A stretch of 10,354 bases of DNA from IMG/VR virus record IMGVR_UViG_2563366849_000004, positions 1 to 10,354 of that record. One strand, 5' to 3'. The position numbers and the translations under genes are program-made. Shown piece by piece: positions 1-10,354 of the stretch. The notes under the pieces were generated by a model. That model did not search any database, was not told where the DNA came from, and was given only the letters and a program-made list of their open reading frames with translations. The first letter of the stretch is position 1. Each line of letters begins with the position of its first letter. This stretch comes from a virus (taxonomy: Duplodnaviria > Heunggongvirae > Uroviricota > Caudoviricetes).

Positions 1-1158
1 ATGCTCACCGTTAAGCAGATTGAAGCAGCAAAGCCGAAAGAAAAACCATACCGCCTACTCGATGGTAATGGACTGTACCTTTATGTCCCTGTATCCGGGA
101 AAAAGGTATGGCAGCTTCGCTACAAGATTGACGGTAAGGAAAAAATACTGACCGTAGGAAAATATCCGCTTATGACTTTGCAGGAGGCAAGGGATAAAGC
201 ATGGACTGCGAGGAAAGACATCTCGGTTGGCATCGATCCGGTAAAGGCGAAAAAGGCCTCGTCTAACAACAATTCCTTTAGTGCAATTTACAAGGAATGG
301 TACGAGCACAAGAAGCAAGTCTGGTCAGTAGGATATGCAACTGAACTTGCAAAAATGTTTGATGACGACATTTTACCTATCATCGGCGGTCTTGAGATTC
401 AGGATATTGAGCCGATGCAACTGCTGGAAGTAATCCGCAGATTTGAAGATCGCGGTGCAATGGAGCGAGCCAACAAAGCCCGCAGAAGATGCGGCGAGGT
501 TTTCCGTTACGCTATTGTCACCGGAAGGGCTAAATATAACCCGGCACCTGACCTTGCTGACGCCATGAAGGGATACCGCAAGAAGAACTTCCCGTTTCTT
601 CCTGCAGACCAGATCCCGGCATTTAACAAAGCACTGGCAACATTTTCAGGAAGTATCGTATCGCTCATTGCGACCAAAGTTTTACGCTACACAGCCCTCA
701 GAACAAAAGAGCTTCGTTCCATGCTATGGAAGAACGTCGATTTTGAAAACAGGATTATCACCATCGACGCCAATGTGATGAAGGGACGCAAAATTCATGT
801 GGTCCCGATGTCAGACCAGGTGGTTGAACTTCTCACTACGTTAAGCTCCATCACCAAACCAGTATCAGAGTTTGTTTTTGCAGGGCGTAACGATAAGAAG
901 AAGCCAATCTGCGAGAACGCGGTGCTACTTGTGATCAAACAAATCGGCTATGAGGGGCTGGAAAGCGGTCACGGATTCAGGCATGAATTCAGCACGATTA
1001 TGAACGAGCACGAATGGCCTGCTGACGCTATTGAAGTGCAACTGGCACATGCCAACGGCGGATCTGTGCGTGGGATTTACAACCATGCTCAGTATCTTGA
1101 TAAGCGCAGAGAAATGATGCAGTGGTGGGCGGATTGGATTGATGAGAAGGTGGAGTGA
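1..1158 (+). CDS. intS: Tyrosine integrase, P4/CP4-57 family, IntS-like (385 aa)
   Basis: Full 385-aa ORF. N-terminus MLTVKQIEAAKPKEKPYRLLDGNGLYLYV is typical of the P4-like integrase arm-binding domain. C-terminal catalytic signature present (HGFRHEF ... IYNHAQY with the terminal Tyr). From memory it matches E. coli K-12 IntS almost residue for residue. Confidence 0.95.
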   Translation: MLTVKQIEAAKPKEKPYRLLDGNGLYLYVPVSGKKVWQLRYKIDGKEKILTVGKYPLMTLQEARDKAWTARKDISVGIDPVKAKKASSNNNSFSAIYKEWYEHKKQVWSVGYATELAKMFDDDILPIIGGLEIQDIEPMQLLEVIRRFEDRGAMERANKARRRCGEVFRYAIVTGRAKYNPAPDLADAMKGYRKKNFPFLPADQIPAFNKALATFSGSIVSLIATKVLRYTALRTKELRSMLWKNVDFENRIITIDANVMKGRKIHVVPMSDQVVELLTTLSSITKPVSEFVFAGRNDKKKPICENAVLLVIKQIGYEGLESGHGFRHEFSTIMNEHEWPADAIEVQLAHANGGSVRGIYNHAQYLDKRREMMQWWADWIDEKVE

Positions 1159-1182
1159 TCCACCTTAACCACTATAGAAGAG

Positions 1183-1228
1183 CACAAAGCCTTGCAAGCC
1201 AATGCAAAGCTTTGTGTGTCCCGTTTTT
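1183..1228 (+). terminator. Intrinsic terminator after int (8-bp stem, nested hairpin in the loop, T-run)
   Basis: cacaaagc (1183-1190) pairs with gctttgtg (1209-1216); the loop holds an inner inverted repeat ttgca/tgcaa; followed by cccgtttttgtctc. It sits between the convergent int and UmuD'-like genes. Confidence 0.5.
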
Positions 1229-1231
1229 GTC

Positions 1232-1618
1232 TCACATCACCGGACAATCATCAAACTCACCTGAACGCGCATCGTTGATGATGTAGGTGATCACCCCAAA
1301 TATCGCATCCGGGCTAGTTCCGTCATCGTGCACCGGTATCTCTTCACGTCTTCCTGTCTGTAAATCCTGCAGGTATGGCCTGGGTGATTTGCGATAACGC
1401 TTAATCCTCATCTCACCTTCCATTCTGCAAACAAGCAATGAGCCGTCACATGGCGTAAATGACGCATCAACTACCAACAAAGCGCCATTAAGAATACCTT
1501 CGCGGTAATGCGTTGCACCCGCTCGCATAAAGTACGTGGCAGCTGGCCTGGCTATGATGCGCTTGTCGAGAGATATGCGCTCTTCTACGTAATCCTGTGC
1601 AGGACTCGGGAATCCCAT
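1232..1618 (-). CDS. UmuD'-like (phage P1 HumD-type) S24 peptidase-fold protein, naturally lacking the UmuD N-terminal arm (128 aa)
   Basis: Translation MGFPSPAQDYVEERISLDKR..PAATYF...LLVVD...IFGVI aligns with E. coli UmuD starting exactly at the residue after the UmuD Cys24-Gly25 autocleavage site (UmuD CGFPSPAADYVEQRIDL...SATYFVKASGDSM...DLLIVD...VFGVV). The position of the catalytic Ser (GDSM) reads GATHY here. Strong SD GGAGGTGA lies 5 nt upstream of the ATG. A LexA box lies immediately upstream. Confidence 0.8.
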   Translation of the reverse strand: MGFPSPAQDYVEERISLDKRIIARPAATYFMRAGATHYREGILNGALLVVDASFTPCDGSLLVCRMEGEMRIKRYRKSPRPYLQDLQTGRREEIPVHDDGTSPDAIFGVITYIINDARSGEFDDCPVM

Positions 1619-1635
1619 AACTCACCTCCGATAGG

Positions 1636-1655
1636 TACTGTATATGCATACAGTA
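1636..1655 (-). promoter_or_regulatory. LexA operator (SOS box) in the promoter of the UmuD'-like gene
   Basis: TACTGTATATGCATACAGTA fits the E. coli LexA consensus CTGT-N8-ACAG with an AT-rich centre; it sits 18-37 nt upstream of the ATG at 1618. Confidence 0.8.
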
Positions 1656-1767
1656 TTATCGATCGGCGGTACCGATCAACATGAAATTTTCGTGAAGTTG
1701 TTACTGAGCGCTTAGGGATGGTGTAAGCTGTTGATGTTAGTTTGCTCTCAACAAGTTGCTAACAAAT

Positions 1768-1797
1768 AAGCCCAGGATGTTTATGCACTCTGGGCTT
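1768..1797 (-). terminator. Putative terminator downstream of the acetyltransferase/tailspike operon
   Basis: 8-bp stem aagcccag/ctgggctt with a 14-nt loop, flanked by T-rich sequence on both strands. Immediately 3' of the acetyltransferase stop on the minus strand. Confidence 0.4.
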
Positions 1798-1804
1798 CAA
1801 CTTT

Positions 1805-9420: not shown

Positions 9421-9516
9421 AAGCGAAGCTTATACATGTCTTTTACATCAGCAATCTATTGTTAATCTCCAATCAATGTTACGTTGTCATCTCACTCATG
9501 CTTTGGAGGTAGTGAT

Positions 9517-9696
9517 ATGTCTTGTCCAAAATGCGGTTCTGGAAATATTGCAAAAGAAAAAACAATGCGTGGATGGTCTGGTGATTATGTGTGCTGCGAT
9601 TGCGGATACAACGACTCTAAAGACGCATTTGGAGAGCGTGGTAAAAACGAGTTTGTCAAAATTAATAAAGAACGCGAAGGCAACGAAAAAAGCTAA
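9517..9696 (+). CDS. Small zinc-ribbon protein (59 aa)
   Basis: MSCPKCGSG...YVCCDCGY gives two CxxC-type pairs. SD GGAGGT lies 6 nt upstream of the ATG. Preferred over the overlapping alternative frame 9476..9715. Confidence 0.6.
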   Translation: MSCPKCGSGNIAKEKTMRGWSGDYVCCDCGYNDSKDAFGERGKNEFVKINKEREGNEKS

Positions 9697-9759
9697 TTTA
9701 TTTATTCATATATGAAAACAATGTAACCAATATTCGAATTGAAGAACTGAAAGAACACC

Positions 9760-9783
9760 AAACCGCCTGATGGCGGTTTTTTT
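9760..9783 (+). terminator. Strong intrinsic terminator ending the early operon
   Basis: aaaccgcc tgat ggcggttt followed by ttttt; a classic GC-stem plus U-run. Confidence 0.8.
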
Positions 9784-9794
9784 GGGGGTAGTAG

Positions 9795-10010
9795 ATGGCT
9801 GCAATTCACATTGTCTCAATAATATGCAATGCAATTCAGATAGTTGCTTGCATTATCTTTGTTTTCTCAATCCTTCGCTCCCGACGATATTCTCCAGCAA
9901 TTAACCGACATCCTGCACAGGTTGAAGCCGTCAGGATGGCTATAGAGTTACGAAATGAGATGAATAAGGCATTAATGGAGATGGAGAAACCATTCACTGA
10001 CAAACATTAA
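9795..10010 (+). CDS. Small membrane protein with N-terminal TM helix and charged helical tail (71 aa)
   Basis: MAAIHIVSIICNAIQIVACIIFVFSIL then RSRR... A G-rich SD-like tract lies upstream of the ATG. Bracketed by terminators on both sides. Confidence 0.5.
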   Translation: MAAIHIVSIICNAIQIVACIIFVFSILRSRRYSPAINRHPAQVEAVRMAIELRNEMNKALMEMEKPFTDKH

Positions 10011-10034
10011 GAGTGGAAATAAAGAAATCACCCC

Positions 10035-10060
10035 GCCTCACACTCGATGAGGCATTTTCA
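10035..10060 (+). terminator. Putative terminator after the small membrane protein gene
   Basis: Stem gcctca/tgaggc with a 7-nt loop, followed by attttcattt. A second weak hairpin plus T-run lies at 10089-10109. Confidence 0.4.
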
Positions 10061-10153
10061 TTTATCAAGATATACAGACCTACCATCGCCGCATCAATGC
10101 GGTTTTTTATTGCCTGATTTGCAGGTTCGATTCCATATTCGGAGATAGCACTC

Positions 10154-10354
10154 ATGCAACACGAACTACAACCTGATTCACTGGTTGATTTGAAATTCAT
10201 CATGGCTGATACTGGCTTTGGTAAGACCTTCATCTATGACCGGATTAAGTCCGGCGACCTGCCTAAAGCCAAAGTTATCCACGGTCGAGCAAGATGGTTA
10301 TATCGTGACCATTGTGAATTCAAAAATAAGCTCTTAAGCCGCGCCAATGGGTAA
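10154..10354 (+). CDS. torI: TorI-like excisionase / recombination directionality factor (66 aa)
   Basis: 66-aa basic protein, MQHELQPDSLVDLKFIMADTGFGKTFIYDRIKSGDLPKAKVIHGRARWLY..., an excisionase-type winged-helix. From memory it matches K-12 TorI of KplE1. SD GGAGAT lies 8 nt upstream of the ATG. Confidence 0.85.
   Translation: MQHELQPDSLVDLKFIMADTGFGKTFIYDRIKSGDLPKAKVIHGRARWLYRDHCEFKNKLLSRANG

Follow-up and report, generated by a model that had tools for sequence, protein, structure and literature searches.

Why should the integrase and excisionase genes of a roughly 10-kb element stand at its opposite ends, and where does the DNA between them come from? These questions are raised by the viral record IMGVR_UViG_2563366849_000004 (Caudoviricetes), whose 10,354 nucleotides, hereafter the window, are cut exactly at two codons: the ATG of an IntS-type integrase gene (position 1) and the stop codon of a TorI-type excisionase gene (position 10354). 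We found that the window belongs to a defective prophage in the 3′ end of argW, a tRNA-Arg(CCU) gene, in the yfdC–dsdC interval of an Escherichia coli-type chromosome. Very probably, this ~10.6-kb prophage is a recombination module of the KplE1/CPS-53 type that encloses the two ends of a P22-like (Sf6/HK620-type) podophage, joined by one deletion.

A prophage in argW with a KplE1-type recombination module

The window is the exact reverse complement of positions 4679–15032 of locus L001, on the 3.2-Mb scaffold KB733421.1 of assembly GCA_000351965.1, which we located through an exact match to its tailspike protein. A tRNA scan of this locus placed the 3′ end of argW, tRNA-Arg(CCT), 161 nt before the int ATG and in the orientation of int; yfdC and then mlaA lie beyond it, and dsdC, dsdX and dsdA adjoin the torI side. 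The two flanks share no repeat longer than the 16-mer CTGCAGGGGACACCAT, whose copies lie at −176 to −161 (the argW 3′ end) and at +74 to +89 past the window end. The second copy, the attR core, occupies window-equivalent positions 10428–10443, 73 nt 3′ of the torI stop codon and outside the window. This 16-mer is the published core of KplE1 (PMC2951348). Integration into the argW 3′ end with duplication of the 16-nt core marks the recombination module of the KplE1/HK620/Sf6 type, and the element shows both, with ~10.6 kb of prophage DNA between the cores. Within the window, the tRNA scan found no tRNA gene, because the window ends at coding limits and argW lies just outside, and no Rfam family scored at gathering thresholds.

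A first-pass annotation of the letters alone had proposed a KplE1-type arrangement at argW with int and xis at opposite ends, and the flanks bear this out: the window runs from the one gene to the other, and argW and the core repeat are where such an arrangement places them. It had named two observations that would speak against it, namely further prophage genes beyond the ends and a second xis next to int, and neither was made. Both flanks of L001 hold chromosomal genes and no phage genes outside the window ends, and no second xis-like open reading frame (ORF) was found beside int in the ORF list, by Pfam or in the L001 neighborhood, the sole ORF near int being a HumD-like gene.

The module itself is nearly that of K-12. 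IntS is identical to K-12 IntS at 383 of 385 residues (the differences are N258S and I380L), and the TorI ORF matches PDB 1Z4H over its full length. A handful of substitutions separate attL and attR from their K-12 counterparts. The −35 element (TTGACA) and the −10 region of PintS in attL are unchanged, which predicts this promoter by sequence identity; the only changes nearby fall at −19/−18, downstream of the mapped PintS start site. The integrase gene thus lies beside attL in the orientation of the tRNA with its predicted promoter overlapping attL, and the gene for the TorI-type recombination directionality factor is the last one, beside attR.

As the first-pass annotation had expected, the excised circle would read xis–attP–int. 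In the element, 73 nt on the attR side, the 16-nt core and 160 nt on the attL side sum to 249 nt, and the torI-to-int spacer is 249 bp long in HK620, Sf6, HK633 and two tandem chromosomal junctions, with the attP core annotated inside it in HK620 and Sf6. Because the attP of the phage form sits between int and xis, integration separates the two genes and carries them to opposite prophage ends. This split is a published hallmark of the KplE1/HK620/Sf6/CUS-3 recombination module (PMC2951348, PMC3509656), and the same topology is stated for Kapi1, a P22-like podophage at argW whose attP between int and xis leaves both at opposite ends of the prophage (bioRxiv 10.1101/2021.04.09.439263). The layout is therefore the normal topology of (pro)phages with a KplE1-type module and no peculiarity of a 10-kb element. 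Full-length prophages that end in the 66-aa torI beside dsdC (L007, L008 and L018) have it too, and among 5,426 complete E. coli genomes, intS occurs in 1,856 and torI in 1,402.

The module is also found in series. Contiguous torI, 249-bp spacer and intS occur within the chromosomes of E. coli no107 (L020, 6619–8229) and E. coli KSC207 (L021, 9230–10837), where elements with the torI/intS module therefore stand one after another. In no107, an intS–gtrABC element resembling K-12 KplE1 comes after a full lambdoid prophage. Among the viral-contig matches listed (L022 onward), most prophage contigs have the KplE1-type P′ arm (TTATCAGTTCGC...) 3′ of the argW core, and several have unrelated arm sequences, for example CCCGCCGTACACC... 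and ATAAACGTTGCC..., from which it follows that other phage families use the same core with different arms.

Between the ends, the likeness to K-12 stops. Alignment with the CPS-53 region of K-12 MG1655 (L004) extends from the flank to window position 1234 (97.7%) and from 10009 into the other flank (97.9%), covering 1–1234 and 10009–10354 of the window; beyond these, only an 86-bp patch at 7509–7594 aligned. The first-pass annotation, in which int and xis appeared conserved and the interior different, was accurate on this point. The element shares with KplE1/CPS-53, the cryptic prophage of E. coli K-12 reportedly described by Panis, Mejean and Ansaldi in 2007, its locus (yfdC–argW...dsdC), the 16-nt core, int at attL, torI at attR, the lack of repressor and lytic genes and its approximate size (~10.6 kb versus 10.2 kb). 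The interior, 1235–10008, is unrelated: where K-12 has gtrABS (yfdGHI), tail-fiber fragments and yfdK–T, the element has a HumD-like gene, an acyltransferase gene, a P22-type tailspike gene, a gp16 fragment, Erf, SSB-like and Abc2 genes and ea genes.

Two podophage arms fused at a microhomology

A counterpart of the left part of the interior is found in another assembly, L002 (Logan ERR3061940), in which the same int–HumD–acyltransferase–tailspike arm stands at argW and runs on into a full P22-type virion module, with the genes for a 659-aa gp16, gp20, gp7, coat and portal. L001 and L002 have 0 mismatches over window positions 286–5355 (5,070 bp). The arm ends within gp16: the fragment retained in the element corresponds to positions 607–666 of the 668 in the PHROG 770 profile and is 100% identical to the end of the L002 gp16 gene. 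Homology to L002 ends at 5355, and homology to the early-left operons of HK633, L007, L008 and L014 begins at 5352. In a three-way alignment (L002 on the left; L003, L007, L008 and L014 on the right), the junction is thus a 4-bp microhomology, CATA, at 5352–5355, and no insertion sequence or repeat scar was found there. The end point on the right-arm side lies just downstream of the position of Sf6 gene 34 and upstream of hairpins that match tL2A and tL2B, which head the right arm without a PL promoter or an N gene upstream.

The fused arms retain the order of a known phage. The order in Sf6 is gp16, tailspike, oac, int, attP, torI, ea genes, abc2, ssb, erf, kil, cIII and tL2A; the circularized window matches it but lacks all that lies from gp16 to the tL2 region. 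No genes for terminase, portal, coat, lysis, replication or immunity (c2/cro) were found in the window by the ORF list, Pfam or PHROGs, and of the ejection proteins only the last 55 codons of gp16 are left. This makes the element a remnant rather than a viable member of Lederbergvirus. The arc that maps to Sf6 is ~10.9 kb of 39.0 kb, from which we infer, by way of this relative, a loss of ~28 kb.

These data suggest the following history. The parent would have been an Sf6/HK620-like temperate podophage integrated at argW, with attL–intS on the left and torI–attR on the right. A single illegitimate deletion at the 4-bp microhomology would then have fused the late-gene arm to the distal early-left operon, taking out PL and N along with the genes for the virion, lysis, replication and immunity. 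To judge by sequence identity, the zero divergence from L002 over 5 kb favors a recent event.

Some observations weigh against descent from one prophage by one recent deletion. No full-length assembly with both arms of this exact phage was found, and the 181-aa protein of the right arm was not seen in identical form in L002, although the L002 contig stops before the early region. The intact tailspike, acyltransferase and HumD ORFs, moreover, could reflect selection. A search for a full-length parent by way of the 181-aa protein led only to the remnant and to a single RecT-type prophage (L018). At megablast level, none of the 5,426 complete RefSeq E. coli genomes contained the junction itself, and the top matches extended over window 5352–6000 only. 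The element might instead be a hybrid, left by tandem argW phages (attL–intA...torIA–attP–intB...torIB–attR) in which one deletion ran from gp16 in the first phage to the early-left operon in the second. Such torI–249 bp–intS junctions are present in no107 and KSC207, and the assembly without the identical 181-aa protein, L002, is the only one found with an identical full-length left arm. The weight of that mismatch is reduced by the early end of the L002 contig and by the early-left region, which is highly mosaic in all relatives compared; deletion within a single prophage also takes fewer events. We regard the hybrid route as possible but doubtful, and it is a variant of the deletion account that alters the history of the element and not its nature.

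The first-pass annotation read the conserved ends and different interior as a conserved integration chassis with exchangeable cargo. The description of the ends and the difference of the interior stood, but the interior proved to be a deleted phage backbone and no swapped cassette: a truncated gp16 gene, promoter-less terminators and a microhomology junction are not the marks of an exchangeable payload. Variable content on a conserved chassis is also not new, because it is already the published description of the argW locus. A dedicated chassis, whose int/attL and torI/attR arms are kept so that cargo can be swapped by homologous recombination and whose interior is selected cargo, would draw on the 97–98% conservation of the arms against K-12 beside an unrelated interior, on intact interior ORFs that include Erf, SSB-like, Abc2, tailspike and acyltransferase, and on a recombination breakpoint inside the conserved arm. 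At that breakpoint, identity between L001 and L002 is lost at window position 286: there are 8 differences in the first 285 nt of int and 6 in attL/argW, a divergence of 2.8% from about position 286 through the int start and attL, and most L001 alleles in this stretch are not those of K-12, HK620 or Sf6. The break inside int implies that homologous exchange has occurred within the conserved arm, as expected for lambdoid mosaics. Such exchange, to which the tandem arrays also point, may contribute to diversity, as ordinary lambdoid mosaicism. We consider a dedicated chassis unlikely: beyond the scar and the truncation, the same module is carried by full-length phages, the intact ORFs have zero divergence from a full prophage, so that selection is not needed to explain them, and the published account credits diversity to different (pro)phages with one module (PMC2951348, PMC3509656).

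Far less probable still is a phage satellite, similar to a phage-inducible chromosomal island and mobilized by a helper P22-like phage, even though the element is ~10 kb long, has int at one end, is linked to a tRNA gene and has kept a tailspike gene. Searches with Pfam, PHROGs and NCBIfam gave no replication initiator or primase, repressor, packaging gene, pac/cos, capsid-redirection gene or AlpA-type regulator; PADLOC, run on ten proteins, returned no defense or satellite families; and the contents are colinear with the two ends of Sf6. We rejected this reading for want of a replication module of its own, a master repressor and genes for packaging or capsid redirection. Draft assemblies can collapse prophages, and the joining of two ends of a full prophage by an assembler was considered as well, with nothing specific to this element in its favor. 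The remnant gene order and its neighborhood are on record in five assemblies, with contigs up to >1 Mb, and the clean 4-bp microhomology offers no repeat to mislead an assembler; an artifact is hardly credible, and we rejected it.

Gene content of the two arms

The features of the window are collected in the table.

Features of the 10,354-nt window, in window positions
Feature	Position	Strand	Basis
IntS-type tyrosine integrase, 385 aa	1–1158	+	Pfam Arm-DNA-bind_3, Phage_int_M, Phage_integrase
Hairpin with 14-bp stem between convergent int and HumD-like genes	1183–1216	.	Terminator scan
HumD-family (pre-processed UmuD′-like) protein, 128 aa, accessory gene (“moron”)	1232–1618	−	NCBIfam NF051876 HumD
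Acyltransferase-3 family membrane protein (O-antigen acetylase type), 343 aa, accessory	1805–2836	−	Pfam Acyl_transf_3
P22-type tailspike, 705 aa; N-terminal head-binding domain and beta-helix receptor-binding part	2915–5032	−	Pfam Head_binding, Beta_helix
3′ fragment of gene for gp16 DNA-transfer (ejection) protein, 55 codons and stop, 168 nt	5188–5355	−	PHROG 770
Intrinsic terminators matching tL2A and tL2B annotated in HK620 and Sf6	5491–5508, 5529–5548	+	Terminator scan, sequence comparison
cIII-like protein, 56 aa	5581–5751	+	
HK97 gp42-like protein, 56 aa	5827–5997	+	
Erf, 201 aa	6008–6613	+	Pfam ERF
SSB-like protein, DDSIPF C-terminal tail	6613–6996	+	
Abc2 anti-RecBCD protein	7020–7316	+	Pfam Anti-RecBCD_p2
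DUF2737 protein	7294–7491	+	Pfam DUF2737
181-aa protein, no family name	7488–8033	+	ORF list
105-aa protein, no family name	8030–8347	+	ORF list
Ead/Ea22 protein	8334–8885	+	Pfam Ead_Ea22
DUF551 protein	8887–9420	+	Pfam DUF551
Eag/Lar-like zinc ribbon	9517–9696	+	Sub-threshold Lar_restr_allev (22.7 bits versus cutoff of 28.6)
Three terminator-like hairpins before torI	9760–9779 (then T run), 10035–10053, 10088–10103	+	Terminator scan
Uncalled 71-aa ORF with hydrophobic N-terminus	9795–10010	+	
Exact 16-nt copy of argW T-arm (TTGCAGGTTCGATTCC)	10119–10134	+	19 nt upstream of torI ATG
TorI recombination directionality factor (excisionase), 66 aa	10154–10354	+	66/66 identical to K-12 TorI

In the left arm, the hairpin that follows int has a counterpart in HK620, in which a terminator is annotated directly 3′ of int. 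The HumD-like protein scored 218 bits against NF051876 (cutoff, 120) and also matched PHROG 811 (UmuD-like) and Pfam Peptidase_S24; UmuD-like genes are annotated beside the tailspike gene in coliphages APC_JM3.2 and Huey. It resembles the UmuD′ analog of P1, no umuC partner is present in the element, and by hand comparison only, it has GATH at the position of the catalytic serine of UmuD (GDSM). The acyltransferase matched PHROG 3333 (O-acetyltransferase) and PHROG 6705 (O-antigen acetylase), and the GC content of its region is 0.36–0.39, versus 0.44–0.48 elsewhere in the window. Its gene occupies a position equivalent to those of Sf6 oac and the Kapi1 acyltransferase gene and is, unlike oac, co-oriented with the tailspike gene. 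Both genes are typical accessory genes of the attP-proximal end, with functions assigned by family membership, by which the acyltransferase would modify O antigen.

The tailspike matched Head_binding at 3e-63 as well as the PHROG tailspike families, and the identical protein is found in L002, a full P22-like prophage. For the interior of the left arm (HumD–acyltransferase–tailspike), no megablast-level match was found in the 5,426 complete E. coli genomes, and ~50,000 phage records gave distant matches only, at 72–80% over parts. Together, the tailspike's receptor-binding part and the acyltransferase constitute a rare pair of genes for host range and, probably, O-antigen modification.

The right arm combines two sets of genes, which recur in the full-length prophages L007, L008 and L018. 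The early-left genes (5581–7491), which matched PHROGs 550, 1723 and 44, follow an order that recurs in many full lambdoid prophages. The ‘ea’-type early genes (7488–9696), which matched PHROGs 614, 3126 and 2945, lie in a region that shares patchy 90–99% blocks with HK620, HK633 and Sf6. Prophages that use four other integrase/att systems encode an Erf identical to that of the window, and lambda- or P22-type int–xis pairs accompany the identical module in L005, L009 and L010, which clearly illustrates how lambdoid phages share modules. The identical 201-aa protein, with SSB-like and Abc2 neighbors, occurs in prophages L005–L014, at several other integration sites that include neighbors of proA, torS and ybhC and with integrases of P22, lambda and other types.

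Just before torI, the segment 9783–10098 (~316 bp) is missing from HK620, HK633 and L018 and present in KSC207, and terminator-like hairpins flank it. The uncalled ORF within it may be an accessory gene for a small membrane protein. Scans for sigma-70 consensus sites found fewer promoter-like sites than in shuffled sequence (1 versus 9.3; 4 versus 9.8) and are uninformative for the expression of torI or of the accessory genes.

Predicted behavior and possible origin of the layout

By analogy with K-12 KplE1, IntS would be produced from an autorepressed PintS promoter overlapping attL, and torI would normally be silent and the element stable. We infer this silence because torI sits behind intrinsic terminators and PL/N antitermination has been lost. 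Rho inhibition is reported to provoke KplE1 excision (Menouni et al., PNAS, 2013), in keeping with silencing through termination. If TorI were expressed, IntS, TorI and IHF would be expected to excise a non-replicating ~10.6-kb circle and the element would be lost. Competence for excision is likely because every part of the module is nearly identical to its counterpart in K-12 KplE1, whose excision in vivo has been described upon provision of TorI (PMC2951348).

Like lambda and P22, the element has a tyrosine integrase and a small winged-helix recombination directionality factor, and its early-left operon runs toward xis. In lambda and P22, however, attP lies beyond int, so that xis and int are adjacent in the prophage and share transcription from PL, whereas the pair in the element is separated and transcriptionally uncoupled (PMC2951348). 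With Shigella phage Sf6 and coliphage HK620 it shares the recombination module, an attP within the 249-bp torI–int spacer and the order of genes on the circle. Both are Lederbergvirus members, reportedly described by Casjens in 2004 and Clark in 2001. The annealing protein is Erf-like in Sf6 and Sak4-like in HK620, and the element has Erf. Sf6 and HK620 differ from it in being complete phages of 38–39 kb, against which the element is ~28 kb short; its HumD-like gene, its acyltransferase and the part of its tailspike that binds the receptor are only distantly related (72–80% or no DNA match). Kapi1 carries an acyltransferase gene flanked by those for tailspike and integrase and is a complete, inducible phage (bioRxiv 10.1101/2021.04.09.439263); its likeness to the element, a remnant, is one of published description and not of compared sequence.

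The separation of int and xis may itself have left a trace upstream of torI. The T-arm copy listed in the table had no match in any of 200 shuffles, even with 2 mismatches allowed, and it is conserved in the same place in all members examined: K-12, HK620, Sf6, HK633, L007, L008 and L018. Its coordinates elsewhere are 11276–11291 in L004, 1677–1692 (−) in L015, 7409–7424 (−) in L016 and 8405–8420 in L003. In the argW tRNA, TTGCAGGTTCGATTCC and the 16-nt att core adjoin, overlapping by one base, and removal of torI with short flanks (~294 bp) would thus restore an uninterrupted 31-nt copy of the 3′ end of argW. From these sequences, torI looks nested in a 31-nt tRNA-identity block. We tentatively suggest, as a conjecture with the balance against it, that a torI cassette landed inside an ancestral attP with a longer tRNA-identity block, giving rise to the xis–attP–int topology and to regulation in which int and xis are uncoupled. 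The 16-mer could instead have a function, for instance as an IntS core-type site or as part of the pI/cII region annotated in HK620, where it lies within the pI promoter and shares 4 nt with the cII site. Among the matches listed in viral contigs, the contiguous 31-mer (T-arm and core) was host argW at attL junctions in 120 of 120, and no attP of the ancestral type was among them.

The arrangement, the core, the module and their conservation across argW (pro)phages have already been published, and what is new here is a different decay history. The element adds another decay product to those of the well-studied and highly variable argW–dsdCXA locus, with little import beyond annotation. It is also a clean case of the formation of a ~10-kb cryptic prophage whose recombination module is intact, namely by one microhomology deletion in an Sf6/HK620-like prophage, and its conserved ends and different middle are those of different mosaic phages with a common int/xis/att module. 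If still excisable, it would provide a second natural substrate, with another interior, for KplE1-type excision without lytic genes. The element may also be a reservoir from which incoming P22-like phages could draw a rare pair of tailspike and O-antigen acyltransferase genes.

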